Assembly: GCA_965216625.1 (NCBI GenBank)
Contig: OZ244186.1
Location: forward strand, 1,347,594 to 1,411,593
Source of the DNA: Alphaproteobacteria bacterium
Lineage (GTDB): Bacteria; Pseudomonadota; Alphaproteobacteria; JABAAW01
DNA: 64,000 nucleotides
Direction of reading: 5' to 3'
Shown here: piece after piece, positions 3,614 to 50,235 of the stretch
How positions within the stretch are numbered: position 1 is the stretch's first letter
How the letters are laid out: every line of letters starts with the position of its first letter
Translations under genes and position numbers: made by a program
The notes under the pieces: generated by a model
What the model was told of the DNA's origin: nothing
Database searches by the model: none
What the model saw: only the letters and a program-made list of their open reading frames with translations

Positions 3614-3765
3614 GAGGCTACGCATATCGCGCTACGCGCGAAATGCGTAGAAGGCGCTTACGCGCCCCGCTGACGCGGGGTCTTTTGCGGGGGGACTGCG
3701 TCCCCCCACACCCCCCATGCGCAAAACTCGCTGCGCCTACGGCTCGCTCGTCTTGCGTTTCCATC
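3614..3765. repeat. Mosaic palindromic intergenic repeat, copy 1 (REP/RIME-like)
   Basis: It contains three modules that recur elsewhere: ctacgcat...atgcgtag, ccccgctgacgcgggg and ggggggactgcgtcccccc/catgcgcaaaac. Copies lie at about 21620, 30510-31000, 31940-32500, 46575-47100 and 49655-50235. Confidence 0.8.
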
Positions 3766-3859
3766 GATACTCAAGTCCCGTTTTTGTAGCAAGGGGCAGT
3801 CCCGTACCCCCCTGCTTCCCTAAATTCACACAAAACAACCCGCAAATCAACCTCTTTAT

Positions 3860-4342
3860 TCACACCGCAGTCATGCCCTCCCCCAACTCCGCAACCCCAT
3901 GCACAACAATAATCACATGCGTCAACCCCCCCTCATCACTAGTGCTCATCTCCAAACAAGCAACACAACCCAATCCCCCCGCACGAGCCAAAATAATCCC
4001 CCGCGCACCCCCGCTCAATCGAACACAAGGCTTCCCACTCCTAAAACGAACGCTCTCAATATCACGCCAATAAACCGCCGCATTGCCAACCCCAACACCC
4101 AGCCGCCTAATCCCCGTCCCTAACGCCTTCCCAATACACTCCTTCGCAGCAAAACAACTCGCTAAATAACTAACCCCACGACACCCCATACCATCTCCAA
4201 TACCACCCCCCATGCCCCGACGACGCGCCTCCGCAACCTCGCCCTCCGCAAAAACACGCGATAAAAAACGACCGCCATAACGCTCAACTAACCGAGCAAT
4301 ACGAGCATGATCACACAAATCCGTGCCAATCCCCAAAATCAC
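3860..4342 (-). CDS. acpS: Holo-[acyl-carrier-protein] synthase
   Basis: The N-terminus MILGIGTDLCDHARIARL and the later FAAKECIGKALGTG match the AcpS 4'-phosphopantetheinyl transferase pattern. Confidence 0.75.
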   Translation of the reverse strand: MILGIGTDLCDHARIARLVERYGGRFLSRVFAEGEVAEARRRGMGGGIGDGMGCRGVSYLASCFAAKECIGKALGTGIRRLGVGVGNAAVYWRDIESVRFRSGKPCVRLSGGARGIILARAGGLGCVACLEMSTSDEGGLTHVIIVVHGVAELGEGMTAV

Positions 4343-5100
4343 AACTCAACTCCCTCTCTACTTCCCTCTCCGATTCCCTCTCTTGCCTCGCGCATCAACC
4401 CCCTCATCTTTGCGACAACCCCGCCCAAAGAATCGAACAACGCCTGACACACAAGAAAATAACCGATGTTCAACTCCTCGATCTGCTCGATCCGCGCCAC
4501 CGCCACAACATTGTCAAAGTCCAAGCCATGCCCCGCATGGCAGGCCAACCCCACCCCCTCCGCAATCCTTGCCGCCTCGCGCAACCTCTCCAGCTGCCCC
4601 GCGTCGTCGTCAGGACGCAACGCATAACTGCCCGTATGCAACTCAACCGCCTTCGCACCCGTCTGCCGCGCCGCTTTGATCTGATCCCCATCAGGCTCGA
4701 CAAACAACGAAACCTCAATCCCTACCGCACCCACCCTCTCGACAAAAGAACGCAACCCCTGCCCGCTACCCCCAACAACATCCAATCCCCCCTCCGTCGT
4801 CTGCTCCTCTCGCCGCTCCGGCACGAAACACACGGCAGCAGGACGAAGCCGCTCGGCAATCACCACCATCTCCTCGCACGCCGCCATCTCCAAATTCAAC
4901 CGCACCCCCGCCGCAAGCAACGCCTCGACATCGCCGTCTCGAATATGTCGCCGATCCTCGCGCAGATGAACCGTGATGCTGTCCGCTCCATGCGCACACA
5001 CAACCCCCGCCGCCGCAACAATATCAGGATGATCGCCGAAACGCGCGTTGCGTAAAGTCGCAACATGATCAATGTTAACCCCCAAACGAAGAGGACGCAT
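4339..5100 (-). CDS. pdxJ: Pyridoxine 5'-phosphate synthase
   Basis: LGVNIDHVATLRNARFGDHPD, HLREDRRHI and ELHTGSYA are PdxJ hallmarks. Confidence 0.9.
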   Translation of the reverse strand: MRPLRLGVNIDHVATLRNARFGDHPDIVAAAGVVCAHGADSITVHLREDRRHIRDGDVEALLAAGVRLNLEMAACEEMVVIAERLRPAAVCFVPERREEQTTEGGLDVVGGSGQGLRSFVERVGAVGIEVSLFVEPDGDQIKAARQTGAKAVELHTGSYALRPDDDAGQLERLREAARIAEGVGLACHAGHGLDFDNVVAVARIEQIEELNIGYFLVCQALFDSLGGVVAKMRGLMREAREGIGEGSREGVEL

Positions 5101-5145
5101 TAAAAGCCCCCCCCAACAACCGCAAAAATAACCGCAAAAATAACC

Positions 5146-5662: not shown

Positions 5663-7249
5663 TCACGAAGTTTTAGTTTTAAAAGGGATACCAATGTAAA
5701 GGTCGCGCTTGCCTTGCAAGTCGGAAACCCTCAACAACACAACTTTACGCCCCGCCTTCTTCGCCTTCGCCAAGACACGTCCCGCCTCCTCGACAGAGGC
5801 AACCTTGACACCATTGATCTCGCGAATCACATTACCGCGCTGCAAACCCTTCTCGGCAGCCTCGATGCCCGCCTTCACAACAACGAGCCCCTCGACCGAG
5901 CGCGGAACCTTGTTGCGCGAGCGCACCAAAGCGGTCAAGGCAACAACCTCGACCTCGATCAAAGACAAGGATGCCGTCTTAACCTGCTTATCCGCAACAA
6001 CGCCGTTGCGAGAACCTTCGCTCTTTTTGCTCCCCCCCTTACTTCCTCCGCGCGTGCTGGCAAGCCGCTGCTCGCTCTGACGCGCCACCTTCAGCGACAA
6101 AACAAGCCGCTTGCCGTCGCGCAAAACCTCGACGGGAACTGTCTTGCCGATCGGCGTTTGGGCTACCATCCACGGCAGGCGATCGTCGCGCGTCACTTTT
6201 TTGCGATTGTAAGAAACGATCACGTCGCCGCTTTGTAAGCCTGCGCGCGCTGCGGGACTTTTAGGAGCAATGCCTGAAACGATAACTCCCGCTGGCTTAC
6301 GAGACCCCTTCCATCCCAAGCCTGCTGCGATATCTTCTGTGACGGGCTGAAAGGCTATTCCCATCCACGCGCGTTGCGCTTCGCCGTGCTGTCCGAGTTG
6401 CTCTACGATCGTGCGCGCTACTCGCGAGGGAATGGCGAATCCGATTCCGATCGATCCTCCGCTGGGCGAGACGATCGCCGTGTTGATGCCGATCACGCGC
6501 CCGGAGAGGTCAAACAGGGGCCCTCCTGAGTTGCCGCGATTGATCGGCGCGTCCGTCTGAATAAAGTCGTCGTAGGGACCTGCGCGAATATCGCGTCCGC
6601 GTGCGGAGACGATTCCTGCGGTCACGCTACCGCCAAAGCCGAGCGGGTTTCCGATCGCCATGACCCAATCTCCTACTCGCGTCCTATCCGAATCGCCCCA
6701 CGACACGGCGGGCAGGTCTTTGTGGTGCTTGACGCGCAACAGCGCTAGGTCGGTTTGAACGTCCTTGCCGACCACTTCTGCCGCCATTTTTGTTCCGTCT
6801 TGTAGCACGACAACGATGCTCTCTGCCTTGTCGATCACATGGTTGTTTGTGACGATCAGCCCTTTGGCGTCGATCACGAAGCCCGACCCTTGCGAGCGAG
6901 GACGCCTGCGTTGTTGCGGGGTGCCTTGTCCTTTTTGTCCTTGTTGCTCGCGGAATTGTCGAAAGAGTTCTTCTAGTTGCGAGCCAGGCGGTGCGCGAAA
7001 CTCGAACTGCAAACCGCTACGCCGCTTGCTTTCGCTGACGGCGTGGCGCGCCTGAATATTGACGACGGACGGAGAGAGTTTCTCGGCGAGGTCGGCGAAG
7101 GAGCTCGGACGCGCGCGCGCATCCGCTGTTGTGACAACGCCGCACGAAAGCAGGAGCAAGGAAAAAATTGCAACCGCAGGCACATTTGCCGACAGCACAC
7201 GCGAGAGGATAGACATACGAGACGAGGAAGAGACGAGGAGTCGAAACAA
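5663..7249 (-). CDS. htrA: Periplasmic serine endoprotease DegP/HtrA (Do family) with PDZ domains
   Basis: Signal peptide present. Catalytic motifs are TNNHV, DLALL and GNSGGPL, followed by PDZ-like segments. Confidence 0.9.
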   Translation of the reverse strand: MFRLLVSSSSRMSILSRVLSANVPAVAIFSLLLLSCGVVTTADARARPSSFADLAEKLSPSVVNIQARHAVSESKRRSGLQFEFRAPPGSQLEELFRQFREQQGQKGQGTPQQRRRPRSQGSGFVIDAKGLIVTNNHVIDKAESIVVVLQDGTKMAAEVVGKDVQTDLALLRVKHHKDLPAVSWGDSDRTRVGDWVMAIGNPLGFGGSVTAGIVSARGRDIRAGPYDDFIQTDAPINRGNSGGPLFDLSGRVIGINTAIVSPSGGSIGIGFAIPSRVARTIVEQLGQHGEAQRAWMGIAFQPVTEDIAAGLGWKGSRKPAGVIVSGIAPKSPAARAGLQSGDVIVSYNRKKVTRDDRLPWMVAQTPIGKTVPVEVLRDGKRLVLSLKVARQSEQRLASTRGGSKGGSKKSEGSRNGVVADKQVKTASLSLIEVEVVALTALVRSRNKVPRSVEGLVVVKAGIEAAEKGLQRGNVIREINGVKVASVEEAGRVLAKAKKAGRKVVLLRVSDLQGKRDLYIGIPFKTKTS

Positions 7250-10960: not shown

Positions 10961-12322
10961 GTGACTGAAAAGAAGCAGAGGATTGATCCTATTCGGCGGG
11001 TACGCGGGATGCAGGATTTTCTACCTGAGCGCGCGGCGGGGATGCGGAGGATTGCGGGGATTGCGGAGGATGTTGCGAGGCTGTATGGGTTTGAGCGGAT
11101 AGAGATTCCTATATTAGAGAGGGCGAGTTTGTATCGGAGGTCGTTGGGATTGGGGAGCGATGTTGTGATGAAGGAGATGTATGCGTTTCAGGATAAGAAA
11201 GATAAAAATGACAATAGCGAGGAGTTGTGTTTGCGTCCTGAGGGGACGGCGGGGGTGATGCGGATGTTGATCGAGGAGGGATTGACGCAGACGCTACCGC
11301 AGAGATGGTTTTACGAGGGGGCGATGTTTCGCAGGGAAAGACCTCAAAAAGGTAGGTTTCGGCAATTTCATCAGTGCGGAATAGAGTTGCTACATAAGTC
11401 CGCGCGTTATGTCTACAATATAGACAAAGAATTAGAGATTGTTGCTTGCGCTTGGTATTTTCTTAGGGAGTTAAGGTTAACAGATACGATTGAGCTTAAA
11501 GTTAATTGGCTTGGGAACGCAGAGGAGAGGATGCTTTATGGTGAAACTTTAAAAAAGCATTTTCAACGATATGCGAAGGATGAATCTCTTTCGGATGAGA
11601 GTATAGAGCGATTGAAACGCAATCCTTTACGCATCCTTGATTCTAAAGACCCTCTCGATCAGGAGGCAATAAGTAAAGTTCCTCCATTGGAATTAAATAA
11701 AGTTTCACAAGATAAATTTAATGATGTTCAAGAATCTCTTAAAGTTTTAGGTATTTCATTTTCTTACGACTCAAGGCTTGTGCGTGGGTTAGATTATTAC
11801 AACGGGTTTGTTTTTGAATTCGTAGAAAAAGACACGGAACGAGCGCAGGCGACGATATTGGCGGGAGGACAATACGATGGGTTATGCGAGGAGTTAGGAG
11901 GAAAAAATCCTGTTGCTGCTATCGGATGGGCTGCGGGGTTGGAGCGTTTATTGGAACTGCAGGAAAACAAAAAAAATCAAAGCGTTAGCTCTCATATAAC
12001 AAAAATGTGTGTATTAGGGGATGATACTTTTAGAGGAGTTGAGTTTGGAGGCGAACTTGTTGATTTAATTGAGGACATAAGAAATAAATTTTATAAAAAC
12101 AATGATCTTTCTAGTGTTGCTTTTTTTACAGCTTCTTCTTACGAAGAGGCAGAAAAAACAAAAGCAAATTGGATTGTTATTATTTGTAGATTAGGGTTGG
12201 AAAGTTATTATTTCCGTATAATAAACGCATCTAATGGGAAAGAACTTGATGCAAATATTGAGCCGCATGAGTTTGATCAATGGTTGGAATCTAGTTTTGG
12301 TGATGAGGACGAAGACTTATAA
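10961..12322 (+). CDS. hisS: Histidine--tRNA ligase; the 5' half is G+T-rich and the 3' half is A+T-rich
   Basis: Class II aaRS motifs are present (RGMQDFLPE, LRPEGTA, FRRERPQKGRFRQFHQ, GGQYDGL). Composition shifts abruptly at about 11400. Confidence 0.9.
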   Translation: MTEKKQRIDPIRRVRGMQDFLPERAAGMRRIAGIAEDVARLYGFERIEIPILERASLYRRSLGLGSDVVMKEMYAFQDKKDKNDNSEELCLRPEGTAGVMRMLIEEGLTQTLPQRWFYEGAMFRRERPQKGRFRQFHQCGIELLHKSARYVYNIDKELEIVACAWYFLRELRLTDTIELKVNWLGNAEERMLYGETLKKHFQRYAKDESLSDESIERLKRNPLRILDSKDPLDQEAISKVPPLELNKVSQDKFNDVQESLKVLGISFSYDSRLVRGLDYYNGFVFEFVEKDTERAQATILAGGQYDGLCEELGGKNPVAAIGWAAGLERLLELQENKKNQSVSSHITKMCVLGDDTFRGVEFGGELVDLIEDIRNKFYKNNDLSSVAFFTASSYEEAEKTKANWIVIICRLGLESYYFRIINASNGKELDANIEPHEFDQWLESSFGDEDEDL

Positions 12323-12325: not shown

Positions 12326-12533
12326 CCTGATAGAAAAAACAATACTATCGGCATGGTGGGCGTTCGTATGATGCATGTAGAGGCGACATGGCACTTGGCA
12401 GATTAAAACATGCGCATAGGCACGACGATAGGCAGTATGGTCTGCCAAGTTGGGGATAAATTCCCCTGCCATGCCGAATCTACATGCATCATCTAAACAT
12501 CTCCCGCGTCGATAGAATTTTCTTTCTATCAGC
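12326..12533. mobile_element. MITE-like ~208-bp palindromic element with imperfect terminal inverted repeats
   Basis: The left arm is cctgatagaaaaaacaatactatcggcatgg...gatgatgcatgtagaggcgacatggcacttggcagat. The right arm is its near reverse complement (atctgccaagttggggataaattcccctgccatgcc...ttctttctatcag). It contains the recurrent ggggataaattcccc hairpin and has no ORF. Confidence 0.55.
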
Positions 12534-12596: not shown

Positions 12597-13772
12597 ATGA
12601 GTGCACAAGACGAGTTCTGGCGTGAAAGATTCGCAACCTCCCTCCATCAAGAGGAAACAACCCAACTCGCCCTAAATAACCCCAAAATCCCCAACCCCGA
12701 ACGCATAACCCTCGCAAAAACACTCGCATCCCTAACCCCCCTCTGTAACGAAATCCGCTCCTACAATAACCTAACCCAACAAAAAATCTCCGCACAAAAC
12801 ATCCTCGCCGAAGAACCCGACGCAGATCTAGATCTATCTAAAGAACTCAAAGCACTCGCCTCAGAAGAAATTATAACCCTAGAAAAACAACGCGCCTCAA
12901 TCCTAGATAAAATCCAAAACCTCATGCTAGACTCATCAGAAGAAGAAATAAATACCGCCATCCTAGAAATAAGACCAGGTACAGGCGGCGAGGAAGCCGC
13001 CCTCTTCGCAGCCGACCTCCTAACTATGTACCAACGATACTCCGCAAATAATTCCTACAAGTTCGAGACTATCTCCATACAACAAACCCAACAAGGCGGT
13101 ATCAAAGAAGCCATCGCTACCATCGAAGGACCCCGCGCCTTCACAAGACTCTCCGTAGAATCAGGCGTCCATCGCGTCCAACGAATTCCCGAAACCGAAA
13201 CACAAGGCAGGATCCATACCTCCGCCGCAACCGTCGCAATCCTCCCCCAAACATCCAATATACAACACCCCCTCCGCGAACAAGACCTCCGAACCGAAAC
13301 CTTCCGCGCGCAAGGCGCAGGAGGACAACACGTAAATACAACCGACTCCGCCGTGCGTATAACCCATATACCCTCAGGACAAGTCGTCCAATGCCAAGAC
13401 GAAAAATCTCAACACCGAAACCGCGAAAAAGCACTCAAAGTCCTAACCGCACGAGTGCAACAACATATCCAAGAATCACAAAATGCCGAACGCTCCGCAA
13501 CACGCAACGCACAAATAGGTAGCGGAGACCGCTCAGAGCGAATCCGTACCTATAACTTTCCCCAAAACAGAATCACCGACCACCGCATCGCGCTAACCAT
13601 CTACAAACTAGACCGCATCATGCAAGGCGACGGGCTAGAACTGCTCCTCAATCCTCTCGAAGCCGCCCGAAAATCCGAGCGTATAACACAACTCCAAGAA
13701 CAAAACACAATCCCCAAAACAAACCCCTCATCCCCAAACAAGCAAACAAACAAAAAAAATGCCTCTTCTTGA
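12597..13772 (+). CDS. prfA: Peptide chain release factor 1 with N- and C-terminal extensions
   Basis: GGQHVN motif and RIHTSAATVAILP. The low-complexity tail is NTIPKTNPSSPNKQTNKKNASS. Confidence 0.9.
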   Translation: MSAQDEFWRERFATSLHQEETTQLALNNPKIPNPERITLAKTLASLTPLCNEIRSYNNLTQQKISAQNILAEEPDADLDLSKELKALASEEIITLEKQRASILDKIQNLMLDSSEEEINTAILEIRPGTGGEEAALFAADLLTMYQRYSANNSYKFETISIQQTQQGGIKEAIATIEGPRAFTRLSVESGVHRVQRIPETETQGRIHTSAATVAILPQTSNIQHPLREQDLRTETFRAQGAGGQHVNTTDSAVRITHIPSGQVVQCQDEKSQHRNREKALKVLTARVQQHIQESQNAERSATRNAQIGSGDRSERIRTYNFPQNRITDHRIALTIYKLDRIMQGDGLELLLNPLEAARKSERITQLQEQNTIPKTNPSSPNKQTNKKNASS

Positions 13773-37018: not shown

Positions 37019-37051
<33 letters not shown>

Positions 37052-37219: not shown

Positions 37220-37270
<51 letters not shown>

Positions 37271-37326: not shown

Positions 37327-37380
<54 letters not shown>

Positions 37381-37808: not shown

Positions 37809-37897
<89 letters not shown>

Positions 37898-37974
37898 TTC
37901 AGGAGCTTTCACCCCATCCCTTAACCTTCCGGCACCGGGCAGGCGTCAGACCCTATACTTCGTCTTACGACTTT

Positions 37975-38007
<33 letters not shown>

Positions 38008-38493
38008 CCCCTGATTTCGTGCCCCCCGCGACGGCTTGCGCCGCTGCGGGGCCTCCTTTTCCCGAAGTTACGGAGGTAATTTGCCGAGTTCCTTCAACAC
38101 AGTTTTCTCACGCGCCTTGGTATGCTCAACCGATCCACCAGTGTCGGTTTAGGGTACGGTCTAAAGCTGGGGTTCTTTCCAGGAACGACTTCCCCTGCCT
38201 TCGCAATCCGATCAGCGAAGACAAGAAAGGTCATCCGTCACCTCCAGCAGGCTCAGGAATATTAACCTGATTCCCATCGTCTACGGCTTTCGCCCTCGAC
38301 TTAGGGGCCGGCTCACCCTACGCGGACGAGCCTTGCGTAGGAAACCTTGGATTCTCGGCGGGGGTGATTCTCACACCCCTTGACGCTACTCATGTCAGCA
38401 TTCTCACTTCCGATACCTCCACGACACCTTACGACGCCGCTTCACAGGCTTACGGAACGCTCCGCTACCGATGCAACAGAATCTGTCCGTCGT

Positions 38494-38998: not shown

Positions 38999-39059
38999 CC
39001 CGCAGCTTCGGTATACGGCTTGAGCCCCGTTACATCTTCGACGCAGGAAGGCTTGATTA

Positions 39060-39123
<64 letters not shown>

Positions 39124-39680
39124 TGGCTTTCCCACATTCTTTCCCACTTAGCCGTAATTTAGGGACCTTAGCTGGCGGTCAGGGCTGTTTCCCTTTTGAC
39201 GACGGACCTTAGCACCCGCCGTCTGTCTGCCGTGCTGAATCCTACAGTATTCGGAGTTTGGTTAGGTTTGGTAAGGCTCGCGCCCCCCTAGCCCATCCAG
39301 TGCTCTACCCCTGCAGGAGATCACACGACGCACTACCTAAATAGTTTTCGCGGAGAACCAGCTATTTCCGAGTTTGATTGGCCTTTCACCCCTAGCCACA
39401 GATCATCCGAAGATTTTGCAACATCTAACGGTTCGGCCCTCCAATGCGTGTTACCGCATCTTCAGCCTGTCCATGGCTAGCTCACTCGGTTTCGGGTCTT
39501 ATACTACGAACTAACGCGCCCTTTTAAGACTCGCTTTCGCTACGCCTACGCCTCACGGCTTAAGCTTGCTCGTAACACAAAGTCGCTGACCCATTATGCA
39601 AAAGGTACGCGATCACCGCACGAAGCGGCTCTCGCAGGTTGTAGGCACTCGGTTTCAGGGACTCTTTCACTCCCCGCATT

Positions 39681-39726
<46 letters not shown>

Positions 39727-40613
39727 GTCGAGGAGTATTTAGGCTTGGAGGGTGGTCCCCCCACATTCAGGCAAGATGTCACGTGTCCCGCCCTACTCTA
39801 GAACAAATCATGCAGATTCGTGTACGGGGCTATCACCCTCTATGGCGCGTCGTTCCAGACGTCTTCCTCTTCAAGCATAATCAGCTACTGGCCTCTTCCG
39901 CGTTCGCTCGCCGCTACTAACGGAATCTCGGTTGATGTCTCTTCCTCCGGCTAATGAGATGTTTCAGTTCGCCGGGTTCGCTTCGCTGTACTTGCGTACA
40001 ACGATTCCCCACTAAGGGGAGGGTTTTCCCATTCGGATATTTTCGGATCACAGTGTGCTGGCAACTCCCCGAAACTTTTCGCAGCCTGCCACGTCCTTCA
40101 TCGCCTCTCGACGCCAAGGCATTCGCCAAGCGCCCTTTGCTACCTTTCGCTCTTTGCTGACAATTCGCAAGCAGCGCCTCAACTCATAGAGGGCTGCTGT
40201 TGACAGAAATTGTGCGTTCTTTCCGATTTCACAAAACTCCGTGCGCAACGCGCCGACAGAGCCAGAAAATCGAATTCTTACAAACGATGGACTTGTTCAA
40301 TAGTTCCCCCCGAAACGCCTCTCGTATTGCAAATACAAGCAGCGCGAAGCCCATAATAGCCGAGCCAGTACTAGAGCGCAAGAAAAAAAACACAAAAAAC
40401 GCATCAGAGATAAAAAAACACGCAAGCGAAAATTTTCCCATCCTCCCCTCTTTTGCTCCCTCTTTTTCTCTTTGTGCGCCTTGCCTCAAAGCACGCCTTG
40501 CGTAGAAAACGACGCTCTCATGTCAGCATTCTCACTTCCGATAACGCTTCTCATTCTTGCGGAACGCTCCGCTAGCGATGCAACAGAATCTGTCCGTCGT
40601 CAATTTTTTTCTT

Positions 40614-41030
40614 TTATTTAAATGGTGCTTCTACAGCACCAGGTTTCAACCTCCAGCCAGTGATAGGACTGCGTTTCCCTATCACTTTTTGCGTATAAAC
40701 TTCTCCCGTCTCAGGATGCGTAATCTCAACACGATATCTAGCACGCTTGAGATATCCCACCTTGCGCTGAAGAGGTATCGTATCGGGCGTGAGACCGCTT
40801 GCCAGCGTTTTTCCAGATGTCTCTGAAATCACAACATATTTTGCTCTCAACTCCCCAGCTCTTATGGAGATCGACTGAGGCTCATGCCCACTCGCCATCA
40901 GCGCACACCCACCAACAAACAACAGCGGGCAAACGCCAACAGCAATAAATATTAACAGCTCTCTCTTCACAACACCCTCCCGCCTAGCGTCTGGATTGGT
41001 ATGGTAGGGAGTGGGAGGCATAATGCCCAA
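40614..41030 (-). CDS. Putative lipoprotein (mature part ~100 aa); start probably the internal GTG/ATG preceding LLIFIAVGVCPLLFVGGC
   Basis: Lipobox LFVGGC, then HEPQSISIRAGELRAKYVVISETSGK.... No family assignment was possible. Confidence 0.35.
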   Translation of the reverse strand: MGIMPPTPYHTNPDARREGVVKRELLIFIAVGVCPLLFVGGCALMASGHEPQSISIRAGELRAKYVVISETSGKTLASGLTPDTIPLQRKVGYLKRARYRVEITHPETGEVYTQKVIGKRSPITGWRLKPGAVEAPFK

Positions 41031-41057
41031 TACCCCACTCCCTATCCATTTAAGTCG

Positions 41058-41258
41058 TTAATTGACAGAAGGACATACAGTTCCGCTAGAACAATCGTAG
41101 ACCTTAGGTTTCAAAGGAATCGGAATCGTAAAGATCCATAACGTCCGAGCGGCCGCAACTTTGTCATCTTTCAAAGTTGTTAATCCCATGTTTGTCACGC
41201 ACCCCCCAAGTGTAACAACAGCAACAAGAGCCACAGCTGCAATAAGAGATTTTTTCAT
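41058..41258 (-). CDS. Small lipoprotein paralogous to the IVS-encoded one (66 aa from MKKSLIAAV...; C-terminal Cys pair)
   Basis: MKKSLIAAVALVAVVTLGGC...YDCSSGTVCPSVN. Its upstream region is homologous to that of 38594..38800. The track start at 41273 includes the RBS. Confidence 0.45.
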   Translation of the reverse strand: MKKSLIAAVALVAVVTLGGCVTNMGLTTLKDDKVAAARTLWIFTIPIPLKPKVYDCSSGTVCPSVN

Positions 41259-41510
41259 GTCATCCTCCTTCAAGGATTGTTAAAAAACTGCCTCTCGCGC
41301 TCGTGCGCGGAAGCACCGCCTTTAAGCACTCCATAAGAGGCACACTTATCGGCAGGTGGCGCAATAATAGCATTAAAAAAAGTTTTATCAACCTTTTTTT
41401 GCTTTTTTTTCCGCGTCTTCTTTTTCCTTATTTGTGCGCGCGTTGGAGTTGGGAACAGACAACTCGACGTGCGCCTTGCCTCAAAGCACGCCTTGCGCCA
41501 TAGTGGAGGG

Positions 41511-45506: not shown

Positions 45507-46559
45507 ATGAATCGCTGTTTGACTTGTTGTTTGGCTCGCGCGGGGTTTATCGTGCTTGCGCTCGTTTTTTGTTTCGAGCCGTTTGTGCTGATAGCGACGG
45601 CTCAGCAGGAGAATTTTGTTAATGTTTATAGTTATCGTTCTCGTTTTCTGACGAAGCCTGTCTTCGATTTGTTTACGGCAGAGACGGGCATTGCTGTGCG
45701 CGTCGTGTCTGCTAAGGAGGGATTGATCGAGCGCATCGCGCAGGAGGGAGAAAACTCTCCTGCCGATCTGTTGATTTCGAACGATGCGACGCGCTTGATA
45801 CAGGCAAAAAAACGAAACATTACTGTTGCCGTGAGGGATAGGAACTTTGTTGGCAGCAGCTTGCCGCGCCATTTGCGTGACAAGGAGCGGCATTGGTTTG
45901 CTCTGACGCGACGCGCGCGAATCCTTTATGTCGCGCAGGAGCGGTTGGGCGAAGAGAAGATCCGACGTTATGAGGACTTGAGCTTACCGCAATGGAAGGG
46001 ACGCATCTGCACGCGCTCGGCTGTGCATGATTACAACTTGGATCTTGTTGCTGCTGTCATGGTGCATAATGGTCGCAAGAAGACGCATGCGTGGCTTTCG
46101 GGGTTGCGAGACAATTTGGCACGCAAGCCGCAGGGCAACGATCGTGCGCAGATACGCGCTGTTGCGGAGGGCATCTGTGATGTTGCCATTGGCAATAGTT
46201 ACTACTTCGGCATTATGCAGGCGGATCCTGCTCAGCGGATTTGGACTAAGGGGGTGACTCCTGTTTTTCCCAATCAGAATGATTATGGGACGCATATGAA
46301 TCTGACGGGCATGGCGTTGATTAGGACGGCTCCGAATCGCACTGAGGCGTTGCAATTAATGTATTTCCTTCTTTCTTTCGAGGCGCAGAGTTTGTTTGCG
46401 CAAAAAAACTATGAGTATCCGGCTTTAGATGGGGTACCGCCGACGGAGTTATTGCAGCTATGGGGTGTTTTCAAGCAGGATGTTGTTGATCCTGCGCGAA
46501 TTGCGGAAAGGAGACGTGAGGCGATTGAGATGGTGCATGCTATCGACTTCGATCGATGA
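45507..46559 (+). CDS. Fe(3+) ABC transporter periplasmic substrate-binding protein (FbpA/AfuA family)
   Basis: Signal peptide present. Size and patterns (NVYSYRS...LISNDATRL...GNSYYFG) fit iron(III)-binding SBPs. Confidence 0.6.
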   Translation: MNRCLTCCLARAGFIVLALVFCFEPFVLIATAQQENFVNVYSYRSRFLTKPVFDLFTAETGIAVRVVSAKEGLIERIAQEGENSPADLLISNDATRLIQAKKRNITVAVRDRNFVGSSLPRHLRDKERHWFALTRRARILYVAQERLGEEKIRRYEDLSLPQWKGRICTRSAVHDYNLDLVAAVMVHNGRKKTHAWLSGLRDNLARKPQGNDRAQIRAVAEGICDVAIGNSYYFGIMQADPAQRIWTKGVTPVFPNQNDYGTHMNLTGMALIRTAPNRTEALQLMYFLLSFEAQSLFAQKNYEYPALDGVPPTELLQLWGVFKQDVVDPARIAERRREAIEMVHAIDFDR

Positions 46560-46574
46560 TAATTGAGCGCAAGG

Positions 46575-47100
46575 CTGTTGCGCTCGCGTAACACAGACGG
46601 GCTTTTTGTATTGACGGGTAAACGCAAGACGAGCGAGCCGTAGGCGAAGTGAGTTTTGCGCATGGGGGGTGTGGGGGGACGAAGTCCCCCCGCAAAAAGC
46701 GCGCCGCGAGCGGGCGCGTAAGCGCCTTCTACGCAGTTCGCGCGTAGCGCGAGATGCGTAGCCTCTTATTCAAAAGCGCGTTTCGCAGAAACGCGCAAGC
46801 TGACTCGCGTCACAAAATCTGCTTGCCGTGTCACGAGTCAGCTTGCGCGAGGCAAAGCCTCGCGCTTTGGTACAAGAGGCTACGCACTTCGCTTCGCTCG
46901 TGCGTAGATAAAGCGCGCTTACGCGCGCTCCGCTGACGCGGGGTCTTTTGCGGGGGGACTGCGTCCCCCCCCTCCCCCCATGCGCAAAACTCACTTCGCC
47001 TTACGGCTCGCTCGTCTTGCGTATGTTACCTAATCAATAAGGGGAATTTATCCCCTCGCCCGCTCCTCATAAAGCGCAAGCCCCCCGCGCCCACACGCCA
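46575..47100. repeat. Array of mosaic palindromic repeats (copy 5)
   Basis: It contains gcaagacgagcgagccgtaggcg...gttttgcgcatggggggtgtgggggg, the ctacgcat/atgcgtag module, aagctgactcg, ccgctgacgcgggg and ggggaatttatcccc. Confidence 0.85.
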
Positions 47101-47108
47101 AGCCCGCG

Positions 47109-47663
47109 CTACAACTTCGGCAAAGTAATCCCCTGCTGCTTCTGATACTTGCCCGCACGCGCCGCATAAGTCGTCTCGCAAGACGAATCACCCTTCAGAA
47201 AAATAAACTGACACGCCCCCTCGTTCGCATAAATACGAGCAGGTAAAGGCGTCGTGTTGGAAAACTCTAAAGTCACATGCCCCTCCCAAGCAGGCTCCAA
47301 CGGCGTGACATTAACAATAATCCCACAACGCGCATAAGTCGATTTGCCAACACAAACAACTAAAACATCCTCAGGAATACGGAAATACTCCACCGTCCGA
47401 GCAAGCGCAAACGAATTCGGAGGAATCATACAAGTCTCCCCCCTCTTGCGAATAAACGCACTCTCGTCAAATGCCTTCGGATCAACAACCGCCGAATTCA
47501 CATTGGTGAATACCATGAACTCATCCGCAACACGCGCATCATAACCATAAGAAGAAAGTCCATAAGAAATAACCGAACCCCCACGCTGACCATCCGTATA
47601 AGGAGCAATCATCCCACGCTCGGTAGCTTGCGCGCGAATCCAATGGTCAGGCATGACAGGCAT
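47109..47663 (-). CDS. dcd: dCTP deaminase
   Basis: [13 protein letters not shown]..., [10 protein letters not shown] and [22 protein letters not shown]. Confidence 0.85.
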
Positions 47664-47705
47664 GACGAGAGACTAAAGAGGATCACACAAAAACGCAACA
47701 TGCCA

Positions 47706-47779
47706 TCGGAGTGGCAGGATTTGAACCTACGGCCCCTGCCTCCCGAAGGCAGTGCTCTACCGGGCTGAGCTACACTCCG
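47706..47779 (-). tRNA. tRNA-Pro (anticodon CGG)
   Basis: Reverse complement CGGAGTGTAGCTCAGCCCGGTAGAGCACTGCCTTCGGGAGGCAGGGGCCGTAGGTTCAAATCCTGCCACTCCGA. Confidence 0.85.
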
Positions 47780-47802
47780 TTACAATCCCGATCAAGCCCC
47801 CT

Positions 47803-48393
47803 CTAGAGATCGACGGCAATCCCCGTCCTAACTTCCTTCCGTGACTCCTTATCGGCAACAACAGACTCGCCAGCAACAGACGCTTCGGCAGGTAGCGCAG
47901 ACGCTTCGCTTCTTTTTTCGTCTCCCTCGTTCTGCTCCGTTTTGTTCGTCTCGTCGGATTCGGTTTTGGCGTAAGCCTGCATGATCACCTTCTGCTCGGC
48001 ATCGCTCAGATGCTCTCCGCGCAAGCCCTGTCCCAAATGCATGTTGATGTCGATAAGAACCTGCACCCTCGATGCGTCCGGAGAACCCAACAACTGCGCG
48101 CTATGCTTGTCGATAAAGGCGCACAGCGTCAGCAAATCGCCGCGCAACTCAGGCGACATAGGGTTGGACTCGTCGAGCAAGGAGGATTGAATAACCGTCC
48201 AAGCTCTCCAGTTCAAGCGTACGATCTCTGACAGCGCGGAGGGATTTTTTTCTTGCTCCTGCTCTCTGCGAACGCGATCCAAGCGTTTAGCCAGCTCCAA
48301 CAATGCCCAAGATTCTACCTCGCGGCTACCCGCCCCTACGACAGAAAGTCGATCTGCCTCTTCGTAAGGATTCACACTCATCGCCAGACTCAT
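47803..48393 (-). CDS. flaF: Flagellar biosynthesis regulator FlaF with an acidic C-terminal extension
   Basis: RLNWRAWTVIQSSLLDESNPMSPELRGDLLTLCAFIDKHSAQLL...LIDINMHLGQGL aligns with the FlaF (PF07309) core. Confidence 0.65.
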   Translation of the reverse strand: MSLAMSVNPYEEADRLSVVGAGSREVESWALLELAKRLDRVRREQEQEKNPSALSEIVRLNWRAWTVIQSSLLDESNPMSPELRGDLLTLCAFIDKHSAQLLGSPDASRVQVLIDINMHLGQGLRGEHLSDAEQKVIMQAYAKTESDETNKTEQNEGDEKRSEASALPAEASVAGESVVADKESRKEVRTGIAVDL

Positions 48394-48488
48394 CGAAAAA
48401 ACCTATAACAACTCATCGTAGCACACAACAACGAGAAATGCGAAAGCGAGGGGAATTTGTCCCCGAGGAGAATTTATCCTCATCTTGC

Positions 48489-49643
48489 TCACAGCAATCT
48501 TGCGAGGCTGAGACTGTTTCGTGTTTCGATCGTCTGCAGTGTCGCGGAGAATTGTTGCGATAGTGCCGACAACTCGATGCCTGCCCTTGTCGTATCTGCG
48601 GCGACCAGCCTGTCGACGAGGCTTTGAGTTGTTATTTCTATTTCCTGCTGCCGCTCCTGCGAGACCAACAGGGTTGCCACCGTACCTGATGCGGATTGGC
48701 GCAAGTTTCGCAATCCGTCGCGCGCGAAATCGAAGAGTTCCTGCGCGTCTAACAGCAGCGTTCTGCGATCGGCGAGCGTTGTCGTTGTGGTATCCAAAGC
48801 TTGCTTGACGAGCCTGACAGCTAGCAAAAGCTGGTTGATAGGCTCGGCGTTGCTGGAAATACCGTACTCGATGAGTTGATTTTGCTCGACTTGTAGGACG
48901 CTCGTTCTGCGTGCGCGCACGACGAGTTCTCCCACGGCGGTTGAGGGAGCATCTGCCGCGTCGCGATCGTGGTCGGCTACTCTGTCGGCGTTGGCGTTGG
49001 CGATGGGAAATGTTGGCGCGATCGACAGGACATCGATCAGGGCGTTGTTGGCATCCGTTGCGGTTGCGGGCAGGTTGCGGAGCAGAAACGCTTCGTAGTC
49101 TGCGGCGGAGGACGGCAGGGGAGCGTTGGTCAAGCCTGCGAGATCGCGCACGGGTGCACCCTCTCGATAGCGTCTGCCTGCGAATATGTAGCGGTTTCCC
49201 ACTTTTGTATTCAGCAGAGATTCGATTGCGCGGAGGCTATTATCGAAATCATCGCCGCTGTATTTTTCGCGCCATGCGGTTGCGTCGAGACTGGGTTGAA
49301 GTCCTTCGCGCACGATTTCGGAGAACGGCTCGATATAGCTCTGCAGGCCGCCTGCGTTGTTGCTTCCTATGCTGCCTGGGTTTGTTGCTCGCAGGGTGAG
49401 TTCGAAGGTTTGGGTGATGGTCAGGACTTTCGAGATACGGGCGGAATCTTTCTCGGCTCGATCGACGACGCGACGATAGGTCAGCACATCGGTCAAGTCT
49501 GAGCGATAGGCGGAGAGGGTTGAAAACTTGCGACCGCTCGACAGGCGTTCGCTCGCGAGATTATATTGCGCGCTTTTCTCCGAGACTGTCCGTAGGGAGT
49601 CGAAGGTTGTGGCGTAATGGCTAGTGCGTCCGACGTAGGTCAT
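48489..49643 (-). CDS. Flagellin-family protein (flagellin or hook-associated FlgL)
   Basis: N-terminal helical segment ...NLASERLSSGRKFSTLSAY. C-terminal helical segment ...LSALSQQFSATLQTIETRNSLSLARLL. The central region is variable. Confidence 0.55.
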   Translation of the reverse strand: MTYVGRTSHYATTFDSLRTVSEKSAQYNLASERLSSGRKFSTLSAYRSDLTDVLTYRRVVDRAEKDSARISKVLTITQTFELTLRATNPGSIGSNNAGGLQSYIEPFSEIVREGLQPSLDATAWREKYSGDDFDNSLRAIESLLNTKVGNRYIFAGRRYREGAPVRDLAGLTNAPLPSSAADYEAFLLRNLPATATDANNALIDVLSIAPTFPIANANADRVADHDRDAADAPSTAVGELVVRARRTSVLQVEQNQLIEYGISSNAEPINQLLLAVRLVKQALDTTTTTLADRRTLLLDAQELFDFARDGLRNLRQSASGTVATLLVSQERQQEIEITTQSLVDRLVAADTTRAGIELSALSQQFSATLQTIETRNSLSLARLL

Positions 49644-49654
49644 GATTGTTGAAA

Positions 49655-50235
49655 CATTTTCTTCTGCTGGTGTCTCTGCATTTACGGAGCAAGAATAGTG
49701 CCAACTTCGCGTGCAGAAACGCGCTTTTTATGTTGACGGACGCAAAACATTGCGTGCGCTTGCGTGTGTTGACGGCAAAACGCAAGACGAGCGAGCCGTA
49801 GGCGCAGCGAGTTTTGCGCATGGGGGGAGGGGGGGGACGCAGTCCCCCCGCAAAAGACCCCGCGTCAGCGGAGCGCGCGTAAGCGCGCTTTATCTACGCG
49901 CGTAGCGCGTAGCCTCTTATTCAAAAGCGCGTTTCGCAGAAACGCGCAAGCTGACTCGTAACATGGTACGGCGATTCTGTTTTGTCTCTATCTTCTAGGC
50001 AAAATTAAAGACGCTCTACCGCGTTGCGAGTCAGCTTGCGCGAGGCAAGCCTCGCGCTTTTGAATAAGAGGCTGTGCGTTTCGCTTCGCTCACGCACAGA
50101 AAAGCGCACTGCGTGCGCTCCGCTGACGCGGGGTCTTTTGCGAGGGATTACTCCCTCGCGCTCCCCGCGTGCTACGCACGCGATGTTTTGCATCCGTCAT
50201 CATACAAAGCCCGTCTGTTGTGCAAGCGCGTACCT
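49655..50235. repeat. Array of mosaic palindromic repeats (copy 6)
   Basis: Same modules as copy 5, in partly rearranged order. Confidence 0.85.

Follow-up and report, generated by a model that had tools for sequence, protein, structure and literature searches.

Six intergenic regions of a 64-kb window

The window, meaning the whole 64-kb stretch of DNA analysed here, belongs to an uncultured, small-genome alphaproteobacterium whose intergenic DNA contains modular hairpin repeats. A preliminary description had reported six repeat-bearing regions, and all six were recovered, with common modules and long direct and inverted matches. Every region lies wholly between genes, and the shared modules occur far above chance: against shuffled sequences, GCGCTTTTGAATAAGAGGC has 9 matches (0.05 expected), GCAAGACGAGCGAGCCGTAGGCG has 4 (0 expected) and GGGGAATTTATCCCC has 12 (0.05 expected). 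Direct families match the reference copy over 78–127 nt at 60–100% identity, and inverted arm matches reach 109 nt at 97%. Together the regions sum to 2,469 bp (not ∼2.8 kb, as initially claimed), which is 3.9% of the window and, with crude longest-ORF gene calls, ∼41% of its non-genic DNA. The features are listed below, with the module labels described in the next section.

2105–2119, unstranded: degenerate AT-hairpin copy (2 mismatches), directly 3' of the SRP RNA gene (2011–2101)
3604–3765, + strand: solo arm in A orientation, with L, H2, H3, H4, H5, E1 and E1b
12452–12466, unstranded: isolated exact AT-hairpin copy, 130 nt downstream of hisS (10961–12322, Pfam)
21618–21790, + strand: partial solo arm, with the end of H2, then H3, H4, H5 (AT variant), H6 and K
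30510–31000, − strand: B-oriented left arm of a cargo-bearing pair, with E1b, E1, K, H6, H5, H4, H3, H2, L, H1, P, T and a second sub-unit
31083–31655, + strand: cargo gene, redoxin/AhpC-TSA (PrxQ/Bcp-like peroxiredoxin; Pfam)
31940–32500, + strand: right arm, in A orientation, with three P-H1-L sub-units, H2, H3, AT hairpin, H4, H5, H6, K and a tail
46570–47060, unstranded: cargo-free palindromic dimer, B arm 46623–46775, A arm 46830–47021, 54-nt centre
48450–48481, unstranded: two adjacent degenerate AT-hairpin copies, GGGGAATTTGTCCCC and GGAGAATTTATCCTC (starts 48450 and 48467; 1 and 2 mismatches)
49655–50235, unstranded: cargo-free palindromic dimer, B arm 49736–49962, A arm 49994–50197, 31-nt centre

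The 3604–3765 arm sits between the convergent dnaX and 4'-phosphopantetheinyl transferase genes. The L linker, with stop codons in two frames, terminates dnaX, the stop codon itself (TAA, 3611–3613) being supplied by the TTTTGAATAA linker of this arm. Apart from such gene-end overlap, the repeats are strictly intergenic. The 21618–21790 arm, located between tRNA-Val and folK (HPPK), is 97% complementary to 30606–30714 over 109 nt; its ortholog in the sister genome CBDCGG01 (locus L003) is ∼125 nt longer (P-H1-L-H2), with a GTAGAA repeat at the bounds. The first dimer is flanked by the convergent solute-binding-protein (SBP) gene and dcd, and has a K/M-type outer tail on the left, and ATGTTACCTAATCAA plus an AT hairpin (47041–47055) on the right. 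The second lies between a flagellin-like gene and rpmJ, and its left half is 97% complementary to 46899–47001 over 103 nt.

The 15-bp hairpin GGGGAATTTATCCCC had also been reported to occur alone at three sites. Isolated copies are confirmed downstream of hisS, where the hairpin sits at the tip of a longer, imperfect palindrome (12335–12393 against 12467–12525), and between the weakly flagellin-like 384-aa gene and flaF (48450–48481). The 47041–47055 copy near dcd, however, abuts the outer tail of the 46575–47035 dimer.

The family is dispersed rather than limited to these six copies. At least 34 different 8-kb blocks of the sister genome CBDCGG01 (∼90% nucleotide identity to the window's genome) contain a 19-mer that is also present in a third MAG, JABAAA01; four repeat-derived ORFs map outside the window on its own 1.9-Mb contig, and repeat elements also occur in the independent assemblies ERZ25071253 and ERZ25071281. 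Some neighbouring copies are 97% alike over 103–109 nt, which would suit a duplication within the window or an error of its assembly, but the further copies, in independent assemblies and species and elsewhere on the contig, refute that explanation, which retains a negligible probability. Repeats make up ∼4.4% of the fetched blocks, which were picked in the sister genome by one exact 19-mer and are thus a biased sample. The DNA sampled covers ∼20% of either genome, and most statistics below derive from the sister genome, few from the window's own. Searches of closer-looking relatives, metagenomes, phages, plasmids and Rfam found no member of the family, and sequence searches gave no similarity to known repeats or Rfam families. 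The repeats are biased to gene 3' ends (72 ends against 43), and the gene pairs bearing them are convergent in 20 cases and divergent in 7. The picture of an abundant, dispersed, palindromic and mosaic intergenic family is upheld.

Arm architecture and covarying hairpin stems

The repeat unit is a polar arm of 80–450 bp, in which GC-rich hairpins (H1–H6 and M) form a fixed-order chain. Module order and relative orientation are constant, (T)-P-H1-L-H2-H3-H4-H5, followed by E1/E1b or H6/K(-M); arms differ in the presence or absence of modules, in the hairpin variant, and in the orientation of the whole arm. The modules are therefore not shuffled, as had been proposed. Conserved linkers join the hairpins (T/P, L = TTTTGAATAAGAGGC, TCTTTTGCG and K), with E1/E1b optional, and the 15-bp hairpin GGGGAATTTATCCCC can replace H5, nest in other modules, or stand alone. 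H2 is bounded by CTAC/GTAG, the GTAG belonging to the stem, and a 47-nt insert nested in H2, flanked by the 8-bp duplication GCGCGTAG, is found in four copies.

Stem positions of the hairpins covary, and the changes are strictly Watson-Crick. Overall, 2,225 stem pairs are Watson-Crick, against 96 mismatches. H1 is 98.8% paired and shows 34 double-change cells, a count that none of 500 shuffles attains (11.5±2.6), with zero one-sided changes; the lack of one-sided intermediates suggests a symmetry at the DNA level. G·T mismatches are found on both strands, 23 on the first and 40 on the second, and hence indicate no clear transcribed strand. On the A strand, the H4 stem has 10 U·G and 8 C·G pairs. 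Whole units fold with z-scores of −3.9 to −6.0.

Terminator-like sites are more frequent than expected (22 versus 3.7±1.9; also 17 versus 4.9±2.3), and map to H1+TTTTGAATAA, short H2'+TTCTTTTT and H4+TCTTTTGCG. Their density per kb is 6.06 outward and 2.56 inward, for a background of 0.76 per strand, and the innermost module on either side of the cargo is a hairpin facing outward, followed by TTCTTTTT. Nonetheless, incoming genes meet solo arms in either orientation with equal frequency (15:15; arm orientation in tandem gene contexts is 17:10), and this randomness weakens the case for a selected terminator role. The 15-bp GGGGAATTTATCCCC hairpin, previously suggested to act as a terminator, is a weak candidate: its stem is 5–7 bp, its energy −11 to −13 kcal/mol with context, its z-score −1.3 to −2.2, and a U-tract follows the copy downstream of dcd only.

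Inverted arm pairs bracket accessory genes

Arms are found solo or in inverted pairs whose proximal (T/P) ends point inward: of the adjacent arms separated by at most 2.5 kb, 18 are proximal-inward, 1 distal-inward, and 1 in the same orientation. The paired arms either abut, as closed palindromic dimers of 400–580 bp without coding capacity, or are open around 0.4–3.2 kb of low-GC cargo. Beside the cargo, the inner ends are truncated at differing modules; the outer ends are of several kinds (E1b, K, M, tail variants), and often unequal between partners. Partner arms resemble each other no more than non-partners do (p = 0.62, permutation test); the pairs are therefore not recent unit transpositions, and there is no tie between a given cargo and its arms.

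In the window, the open pair encloses the redoxin gene. Its left arm includes tandem 127-bp sub-units (30740–30866 and 30867–30993, 94% identical) and has as innermost module an outward-facing GC hairpin, then TTCTTTTT. In the right arm the P-H1-L sub-units are spaced by 127 and 108 nt, and a 17-bp tandem tail, CCGTCAAGACAAAAAGC, in 3–4 copies (32400–32467), adjoins gltX on the upstream side. The GC content is 0.44 for the redoxin gene and 0.46 for the cargo segment (30963–31955), against 0.55 for the window, and the closest named homologs of the redoxin beyond this lineage are from Burkholderiaceae and Polynucleobacter (∼58–60% identity). More generally, cargo GC is 0.34–0.46 in 10 of 13 pairs, compared to 0.52–0.56 where chromosomal DNA lies between distal ends. 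Cargo in the sister genome comprises three paralogous coiled-coil genes, two Sel1 genes, a membrane protein, a DNA methylase, a methylase fragment, a type II restriction enzyme and an OmpA-family gene (ZorB2); it also holds a complete Zorya II system (ZorA2 3e-82, ZorB2 5.5e-73, ZorE 2e-52), PDC-S57 and more type II restriction enzymes. The arms bracket imported accessory and defence genes, a peroxiredoxin in the window and anti-phage systems in the sister genome. Cargo orientation is mixed, which fits the prediction from symmetric arms. Cargo paralogs occupy different arm pairs (L008 and L042, 76–79% identity, each between arms). A single arm flanks at least one of the low-GC cargos (L051), and a low-GC R-M island in the window (60053–61355) lacks arms altogether.

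As initially proposed, no transposase was found with the repeats: Pfam detected none among ∼45 window ORFs or in 14 cargo segments, and no multi-copy ORF of the sampled loci encodes one. A phmmer --max search with E. coli TnpA-REP (query sequence verified against PDB 4ER8) gave no match to a REP-associated tyrosine transposase (RAYT) below E = 0.8 in ∼390 kb.

Orthologous sites differ in the module variants present, in how many sub-units they have, and in their cargo. At the ksgA-gltX site, the redoxin pair is present in the window and in two further strains (L048, L049), while L017 has a 280-bp cargo-free element only, and the redoxin gene is absent from this site in the sister genome. The flagellin-rpmJ site has a closed dimer in the window, a ∼440-bp low-GC insert at the dimer centre in the sister genome (L042), and a 281-bp spacer, empty, in a relative (L043). 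The SBP-dcd site, likewise, has a dimer in the window, a different composition in L042, and an empty 98-bp spacer in L043. Orthologous arms are 75–81% identical, versus 94–97% for the flanking genes; the H4-to-K segment is exchanged between left and right arms, and some strains have 2 sub-units where another has 3. Divergence of the spacers at the empty L043 sites precludes their alignment, so that neither a target-site duplication nor clean ends could be defined, and no movement event was seen directly. Strong support for the suggestion that such elements can drive rearrangement and capture of genes comes both from the inverted arms bracketing low-GC accessory genes and from the difference in cargo between orthologous sites.

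Interpretation and comparison with known systems

The best reading of the six regions, which I consider somewhat more probable than even for the explanation as a whole, is that they are copies of one lineage-specific, non-coding and non-autonomous repeat family, foldback- and BIME-like, reshaped by recombination, and serving as landing pads for accessory cassettes. The natural configuration would be the inverted arm pair with proximal ends facing, that is, a foldback-type element, closed or open around cargo. Module-variant replacement, the change in sub-unit copy number and left/right arm exchange suggest that homologous recombination and gene conversion among copies may be the main reshuffling route. 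Closed dimers could then act as portable homology, or landing pads, allowing cassettes to be gained, lost or flipped with no recombinase of their own, much as with Neisseria minimal mobile elements (MMEs), and the outward-facing hairpin-plus-T-tract modules of each arm may terminate transcription exiting the cassette. For an arm to arrive at a new intergenic site, a trans-acting enzyme encoded outside the sampled DNA, or a hairpin-templated process, would be needed.

Inverted doublets as favoured configuration, compensatory stem change and variable spacers as for REPINs (PMC3337134), an H2 bounded by CTAC/GTAG, and extragenic, high-copy elements vertically confined to one lineage with a gene-3'-end bias could all point to a REPIN/RAYT system. 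There, a hairpin such as H2 would be the REP, the inverted dimers REPIN-like doublets, and a single-copy RAYT elsewhere would copy the dimers as single-stranded DNA, the cargo being secondary. RAYTs are typically single-copy, so one could lie in the ∼80% of the genome outside the sample. I nevertheless regard this explanation as unlikely: besides the negative search with TnpA-REP, Pfam found no Y1 transposase between arm pairs, the classic RAYT position; the GTAG of H2 is within the stem, not a single-stranded 5' tetranucleotide; and the units are 80–450-nt chains of at least six different hairpins, while REPs are 20–40 nt and REPINs ∼90 nt. Membership in REP or RIME, to which the repeats were initially likened, is not shown, given the unit size and the absence of a RAYT from the sampled DNA.

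A conventional origin as MITEs or foldback IS derivatives, with the arms as long terminal inverted repeats, a DDE transposase acting in trans, and cargo-bearing pairs as composite or pack-type transposons, would account for the long inverted arms, the variable centre and the non-coding closed dimers, for the same small cargo being found between arms at two sites, and for the duplication flanking the H2 insert. It is very doubtful given the lack of a transposase in the window, in the cargos and among multi-copy ORFs of the sampled loci, the unequal outer ends, the inner ends cut at different modules, the undetectable target-site duplication, and partner arms no closer than non-partners. Selection by the host for an RNA-level function, as terminators or mRNA-stabilising 3' structures multiplied for that function and not by mobility, seems quite improbable. 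The enriched hairpin-plus-T-tract motifs, the bias to 3' ends and convergent pairs, the U·G tolerance of H4 on the A strand and the L linker ending dnaX are in its favour; but solo arms are randomly oriented, stems are almost purely Watson-Crick with G·T on both strands and no one-sided intermediates in H1, and close relatives have empty spacers of 98–281 bp at the same sites. Moreover, termination does not need 4–10 stacked hairpins, palindromic dimers or the bracketing of foreign genes.

The preferred reading, of a non-autonomous family reshaped by recombination, can be placed among known systems. REP/BIME (bacterial interspersed mosaic elements) of E. coli and the REPIN-RAYT systems of Pseudomonas and enterobacteria are extragenic, high-copy, GC-rich imperfect palindromes (PMC3337134, PMC3116915). 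The present family shares with them the mosaic of palindromes and conserved linkers, the favoured inverted doublets with compensatory stem change, the gene-3'-end bias, the restriction to one lineage and vertical inheritance (PMC3337134, PMC3116915). It differs in that a fixed chain of different hairpins replaces the single palindrome, in the lack of sequence similarity to known repeats or Rfam families, and in that the arms bracket foreign genes in the place of a RAYT, of which the sampled DNA shows none. As in Neisseria MMEs (Correia/dRS3 arrays), alternative cargos of 1–3 genes occur at one site between conserved genes, with restriction-modification among the cargo, no recombinase in it, and repeat arrays at the boundaries (PMC1797815); this applies here to the ksgA-gltX and flagellin-rpmJ sites, and to the R-M and Zorya cargo. 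However, MMEs are exchanged via flanking conserved genes after natural transformation, while here the inverted arm pair is what is conserved, at many loci.

Like MITEs and foldback elements, the repeats are non-coding and present in many copies, with long inverted arms at their ends, in which tandem sub-units (127/108 bp) occur, and a centre that is empty or holds unrelated DNA; unlike these, no target-site duplication, defined termini or parent IS was found here, and the arms of one pair are not mutual closest relatives. Rhizobium-specific intergenic mosaic elements (RIME) and Rickettsia palindromic elements (RPE) are alphaproteobacterial precedents; families of this type proliferate in host-associated or small genomes, and RPEs often insert in frame into genes. 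Compared by description only, the present elements resemble both as alphaproteobacterial palindromic mosaics, intergenic or at gene ends, and differ from RPEs in lying outside genes except for gene-end overlap, as at the dnaX stop codon. On the preferred reading the family itself is new and confined to its lineage, and the inverted pairs around imported genes make it an unusual variant of the REP/BIME/MITE-type repeats of other bacteria.

Architecture of the repeat arms

On reading the six intergenic regions in which the preliminary description had placed a repeat family, all of the modules it listed were seen. The regions are:

3604-3765: repeat region
21618-21790: repeat region
30510-31000: repeat region, left of the redoxin gene (31083-31655)
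31940-32500: repeat region, right of the redoxin gene
46570-47060: repeat region, dimer
49655-50235: repeat region, dimer

A repeat search of the window showed that direct families (e.g., repeats of 78 nt and 127 nt) connect all six regions, and that inverted arms across them reach 109 nt with 97% complementarity. In a module search of the window, GCGCTTTTGAATAAGAGGC was matched nine times (0.05 expected), GCAAGACGAGCGAGCCGTAGGCG four times (0 expected) and the 15-bp hairpin GGGGAATTTATCCCC twelve times (0.05 expected). The regions sum to 2,469 bp, or 3.9% of the window, somewhat less than the ∼2.8 kb first estimated, and represent about 41% of its non-genic DNA when genes are called with a longest-ORF heuristic. 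They contain no real genes, and no further copies occur elsewhere in the window, isolated 15-bp hairpins excepted.

I aligned 73 occurrences of the linker L, and mapped eight module probes. The modules had been described as shuffled; in these units, however, order and relative orientation are constant, (T)-P-H1-L-H2-H3-[AT]-H4-H5, followed by E1/E1b or H6/K, and often by a long hairpin M (GTCTG...CAGAC). This polar chain is hereafter referred to as an arm, with its T/P end as the proximal end. Arms differ in the hairpin variant found at each position, in their reach, and in the tandem copies of an inner sub-unit (T-P-H1-L-short hairpin, 108–127 bp). The repeat unit is 80–450 nt long, with at least six distinct hairpins plus linkers, and hairpins of 15–35 nt are never found independent of the chain. 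The one exception is the 15-bp AT hairpin, which occurs at the H5 position, before H4 or H1, nested in the H1 stem, or alone. Module matches in called ORFs lie nearly all in ORFs of 90–200 amino acids wholly within repeats.

Several individual arms show further features. In four units (L022:662-813, L024:2876-3032, L037:7618-7765 and L037 about 6400-6478, by compared locus), a nested insert of ∼47 nt, made of a K-tail/M-like piece and the AT hairpin, lies inside H2; it is bounded by an 8-bp direct duplication, GCGCGTAG, the only TSD-resembling feature of the family. The right arm ends, 40 nt upstream of gltX, in an outermost tail of 3–4 tandem copies of the 17-bp sequence CCGTCAAGACAAAAAGC (32400-32467). 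This tail is kept at the orthologous site in other strains (L048, about 4150-4215), where the rest of the arm is replaced, and it looks like a series of binding sites or, read on the other strand, of -35-like TTGACG boxes. At 3604-3613, the linker TTTTGAATAA supplies the stop codon of dnaX, whose last ∼45 codons are E/K-rich and of low complexity, and whose product is 478 amino acids long, vs 457 in two relatives (L046, L047), suggesting that repeat insertion remodelled the 3′ end of this gene. Relative to its neighbours, the hisS gene (10961-12322) is unusually low in GC (0.42) and strongly positive in skew (+0.37), and on its 3′ side is an imperfect palindrome of 190 bp (12335-12525), with 59-nt arms that are 73% complementary and the AT hairpin at its apex.

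Pfam searches identified an alphaproteobacterial gene content in the window (FlaF, a TRAP transporter, heme and pyridoxal synthesis, aminoacyl-tRNA synthetases), and its RNA genes are five tRNAs, the SRP RNA and a 23S-5S pair without adjoining 16S. Among the ∼45 window ORFs scanned with Pfam, no transposase was found, as first described, and no integrase. The redoxin is 100% identical to P0121, a protein from the window's own 1,902,689-bp contig, and P0249, a repeat-derived ORF of that contig, maps at 100% to 50093-50314.

The 23S gene (36898-40149, minus strand) is 3,252 nt long, vs 2,925 nt in the model. Several hundred nucleotides are inserted (38430-38960, from about 38950) at model position 1218, in a loop that I take to belong to helix 45, where intervening sequences are known to occur. 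The insert duplicates, in shortened form and with 87–93% identity in blocks, the stretch immediately upstream of the 23S gene, and a related copy lies at 40535-41433. A 68-residue ORF within it has a signal of the lipoprotein type (MKKSLIVAVALVGIFALGGC...) and no Pfam match; its paralog is the ORF at 41058-41273. No 16S gene is found in the 1.3 kb (40150-41470) upstream of the 23S-5S genes (36635-41470), which suggests rRNA genes that are not linked, an arrangement shared with several alphaproteobacteria that are reduced or host-associated.

Coding-strand GC skew ranges from -0.39 to +0.60 between genes of the window, regardless of DNA strand, and it coincides with long runs of G or C. Such gene-to-gene swings are unusual for a bacterium. 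Examples are:

3860-4342: positive skew, +0.60
21796-22302: positive skew, +0.44
29391-30476: positive skew, +0.43
12597-13772: negative skew, -0.38
50508-51017: negative skew, -0.39
32508-33962: negative skew, -0.29

Dispersal and base pairing of the arms

One genome per species was scanned for one exact 19-mer from the repeats, which matched in at least 34 separate 8-kb blocks on the 1.63-Mb contig of CBDCGG01, a sister metagenome-assembled genome that is 84–91% identical to the window across syntenic stretches. Among the matches listed were also a 24.8-kb contig of the same genome and a 744-bp contig of another assembly, JABAAA01, as well as two in unrelated phyla that have no neighbouring module. 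Four more repeat-derived ORFs are annotated on the window's own contig, and because they are only 39–90% identical to the window copies, they lie outside the window. When a repeat-derived ORF was used as the query, only 16 similar proteins were found among 5.8 billion, all on contigs of at most 1.9 Mb; several of these contigs proved to belong to this lineage. The 19-mer had four matches in metagenomes, all rejected as chance hits without neighbouring modules, and none in viral contigs; blastn with the repeats against plasmids and phages gave no match, and in 17–20 kb from each relative with a dCTP deaminase of 92% or 78% identity, no trace of a repeat was seen. The copies are thus dispersed and do not represent a local duplication, in line with the dispersed family first proposed. 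No copies were found elsewhere in these searches, and the family is a recent, lineage-restricted expansion. Most of the family statistics that follow come from the sister genome, in blocks chosen for the 19-mer; about 20% of each genome was covered.

The hairpins are well paired. A palindrome scan of 73 units counted 2,225 Watson-Crick pairs, with 23 G·T, 40 A·C and 33 other mismatches, an A·C mismatch on one strand being a G·T on the other. H1 comes in eight or more variants, each with a core that is fully complementary; in an alignment of 18 sequences it is 98.8% paired (27–60% in slid controls), with no one-sided change and 34 double-change cells, vs 11.5 ± 2.6 in shuffles, none of 500 reaching 34. 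Pairing is kept likewise in H2 and M, e.g., CTACGCAC...GTGCGTAG vs CTGTGCGT...ACGCACAG. Covariation was quantified for H1 and H4, and the other stems were scored with a custom palindrome scan, since their variants differ by indels and were poorly aligned by RNAalifold. Folding the units on both strands gave z-scores of -3.9 to -6.0 relative to shuffles, so that the units are far more stable than these.

Such pairing could be maintained in a single transcribed strand. There are 23 G·T mismatches on the A strand and 40 on the B strand, and folding favours the B strand by a mean MFE difference of 4.9 kcal/mol, yet in H4 the U·G pairs are those of the A strand. I rejected these figures as evidence for a single transcribed strand. 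Since wobble intermediates are nearly absent and neither strand is consistently favoured, the data suggest that pairing is kept in the DNA itself, or on both of its strands, and not in a single transcript. The P module, GAGTCAGC, can pair with H4, in its loop and on its 3′ side (GTCAGC with GCTGAC), and in MFE folds this predicted pairing closes a four-way, cloverleaf-like junction around H1–H3 (e.g., 50028-50130). I did not adopt this fold, because both sides are invariant and the pairing is thus beyond the reach of covariation.

Many of the hairpins are followed by a T-tract, as in H1+TTTTGAATAA, H2′+TTCTTTTT, H4+TCTTTTGCG and H6+GATGTTTTGC. I scanned for terminator-like sites, defined by consensus as a GC-rich stem-loop followed by a T/U tract, and found 22 in the region 30400-32600 (3.7 ± 1.9 in shuffles) and 17 in 46400-50400 (4.9 ± 2.3), nearly all inside modules. 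Over 65 arms, their density is 6.06/kb in the proximal-to-distal direction, 2.56/kb in the reverse, and 0.76/kb per strand elsewhere. Because this density is highest proximal-to-distal, an arm can be described as a stack of outward-facing hairpin-plus-T-tract motifs. The 15-bp hairpin itself, for which a role as terminator had been suggested, is modest (-11.5 to -15.5 kcal/mol with context, z -1.3 to -2.2), and has no T-tract except downstream of dcd.

The placement of arms among genes was also analyzed. The 49 arrays with two callable neighbours lie between convergent (20), tandem (22) or divergent (7) genes, and of the array ends, 72 adjoin the 3′ end of a gene and 43 a 5′ end. Arm-end type shows little relation to the type of the adjacent gene end (43:19 vs 29:24), reflecting a general 3′ bias only, and arm orientation is unconstrained by transcription (17:10 in tandem contexts). 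Solo arms facing an incoming gene are co-directional in 15 cases and opposed in 15, and this random orientation argues against a strong general terminator role. Arms are thus not consistently placed co-directionally downstream of genes, and only their relation to enclosed cargo is consistent. A putative insulating role around AT-rich cargo would fit the outward-facing motifs.

Arm pairs, their cargo and its turnover

Where adjacent arms are separated by gaps of at most 2.5 kb, they are inverted, with their proximal ends facing, in 18 of 20 cases, although repeat copies are kin and these counts are not independent events. In the two others, one pair has its distal ends facing, and one has both arms in the same orientation. 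Five of the 18 inward pairs abut as palindromic closed dimers, and 13 enclose 440–1,994 bp, with a GC content of 0.34–0.46 in ten of these; a fourteenth pair encloses 3.2 kb (GC 0.38). For comparison, the genomes average 0.53–0.55, and DNA between distal ends 0.52–0.56. The cargo associated with arms is as follows.

Cargo enclosed by arm pairs, or beside arms
Window: PrxQ/Bcp-like redoxin, GC 0.44
Sister genome: complete Zorya type II system (ZorA2 3e-82, ZorB2 5.5e-73, ZorE 2e-52)
Sister genome: type II restriction-modification pair, PDC-S57 candidate defence gene, methylase fragment
Sister genome: two Sel1-repeat proteins, three paralogous small coiled-coil proteins
Sister genome: two paralogous membrane proteins, small genes of no known type
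A further strain: two more arms beside type II restriction genes; one cargo with a one-sided arm

Cargo genes are found in either orientation, and the same small or paralogous cargo can lie between different arm pairs, at 70–80% nucleotide identity. The inner arm boundary differs from pair to pair, and the first module beside the cargo, on both sides, is usually a short GC hairpin then TTCTTTTT, read outward from the cargo. Pfam searches of the genes between arms identified no transposase, integrase or RAYT (no Y1_Tnp domain), and no IS or transposase was found in the sampled loci. A phmmer search with E. coli TnpA-REP, whose query sequence proved identical to PDB 4ER8, returned nothing below E = 0.8 over ∼390 kb (∼20% of each genome).

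Restriction-modification genes are also seen away from arms. Next to tRNA-Gln (61420-61491), the window has a two-gene island without repeat arms (60053-61355, minus strand, GC 0.40), encoding a type II N6/N4 DNA methyltransferase (Pfam 1e-33; PADLOC MTase_II 5e-50) and a 164-residue ORF with no match, possibly its restriction partner. At least six N6/N4 DNA methyltransferase paralogs, several beside restriction enzymes, occur in ∼280 kb (loci L009, L012, L016, L019, L029, L030 and L033 of CBDCGG01, and L051 of a related strain), a high density for a 1.6-Mb genome.

Orthologous sites were compared between strains. Between ksgA and gltX, the arm-redoxin-arm arrangement of the window is also present in two further strains (L048 and L049, flanks 94–97% identical), and in the sister genome (L017) the site is taken by a 280-bp element that shares the outermost sequences and holds no cargo. 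Between the flagellin-like gene and rpmJ, a closed dimer is seen in the window, arms separated by ∼440 bp of DNA with GC 0.41 in the sister genome (L042), and a 281-bp spacer with no repeat in a relative (L043). Between SBP and dcd, the window has a dimer, the sister genome another module set, and L043 a 98-bp spacer. The tRNA-Val-folK site is occupied in both genomes, with a 125-nt difference bounded by GTAGAA. The outer arm ends are heterogeneous, and the empty sites of L043 are too diverged to align. That inverted arm pairs bracket low-GC accessory genes, and that orthologous sites differ in cargo, strongly supports the initial suggestion of rearrangement and gene capture.

The arms themselves also change. 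Orthologous arms are only 75–81% identical between strains, left arms have two or three sub-units depending on the strain, E1 modules are present in the window only, and H4-H5-H6-K is found in the right arm in the window and the left arm in L048, and the reverse, with the orientation of the cargo constant. Module variants are replaced, and arm segments swapped, between strains. Pairs could have arisen as recent fold-back duplications or unit transpositions, and partner arms would then be expected to resemble each other; they are no more alike than arms elsewhere (p = 0.62), and I rejected this origin. The low identity, varying sub-units and swapped segments would rather reflect recombination or gene conversion, acting frequently among the copies and from one arm of a pair to the other, and the lack of excess similarity between partners is consistent with this. 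Cassettes may be exchanged via the arms.

The family is most likely a new, lineage-specific, non-autonomous intergenic repeat family, with the foldback pair of hairpin-chain arms as its basic form. A more far-reaching reading, which I consider improbable, is that arm pairs are the ends of an undescribed non-autonomous cassette carrier. Its foldback-type ends would derive from the fixed hairpin chain, and its outward terminators would insulate transcription. Zorya II, type II restriction-modification, PDC-S57 and other accessory genes would shuttle between landing-pad dimers, scattered empty in a small symbiont-like genome, mobilised either by a trans-acting, hairpin-recognising enzyme or by RecA-mediated cassette exchange alone.

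Interspersed palindromes are common, but it is seldom clear how they bear on the gain and loss of genes. In this case, a single private family makes up about 40% of intergenic DNA, follows a strict pairing rule and brackets low-GC accessory genes, complete defence systems among them, and orthologous sites differ in cargo and modules between genomes that are 3–10% diverged. If these arms really serve cassette exchange, they would provide a recombinase-free route for the turnover of defence and accessory genes in a reduced genome, and a tractable natural case of two processes at the DNA level, concerted evolution and covariation that preserves structure. In practice, the repeats break short-read assemblies of the lineage (the JABAAA01 copy lies on a 744-bp contig), and generate spurious ORF calls, already present in protein databases.

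Comparison with known systems

Searches against Rfam gave no gathering-level hit in the repeats, and at relaxed E-values only miRNA-precursor hairpin noise (E ≥ 0.01). In kind, the family resembles both MITEs and foldback elements; like MITEs, the dimers at 46570-47060 and 49655-50235 are small and non-coding, with terminal inverted repeats. Integrons have an integrase nearby, and their cassettes and attC sites are in tandem, in one orientation. In contrast, no integrase was found in the DNA sampled, each cassette stands alone between inverted arms, and the inner boundary differs among pairs.

The repeats had been described as REP/RIME-like. They are indeed extragenic, palindromic and mosaic, in many dispersed copies with conserved linkers and alternating orientation, as are REP/BIME elements. 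However, a REP/BIME unit is a short (about 20–40 nt) imperfect palindrome, and the unit here is a chain of 80–450 nt with at least six hairpins. The likeness to the RIME of Sinorhizobium is one of kind only. As in REPIN-RAYT systems, the inverted doublet is the prevalent form (18 of 20 adjacent arm pairs); a cognate RAYT is a HUH/Y1 transposase of about 150–170 amino acids, typically flanked by repeats. REP, BIME and REPIN elements are extragenic, palindromic and mosaic, with favoured doublets and compensatory stem evolution (PMC3337134, PMC3116915), and in kind they are the closest to this family.

In behaviour, the closest are the minimal mobile elements of Neisseria, where small recombinase-free cargos, notably restriction-modification genes, alternate at repeat-bounded sites (PMC1797815). 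Their movement is by transformation and homologous recombination, a route that would have indirect evidence here, in the arm segments swapped and the module variants replaced between strains. Similarly, the arms described here enclose cargo without a recombinase, and one site can hold a differing cargo or none, as seen at ksgA-gltX (redoxin in the window, none in L017) and at flagellin-rpmJ (none in the window, a 440-bp insert in L042).
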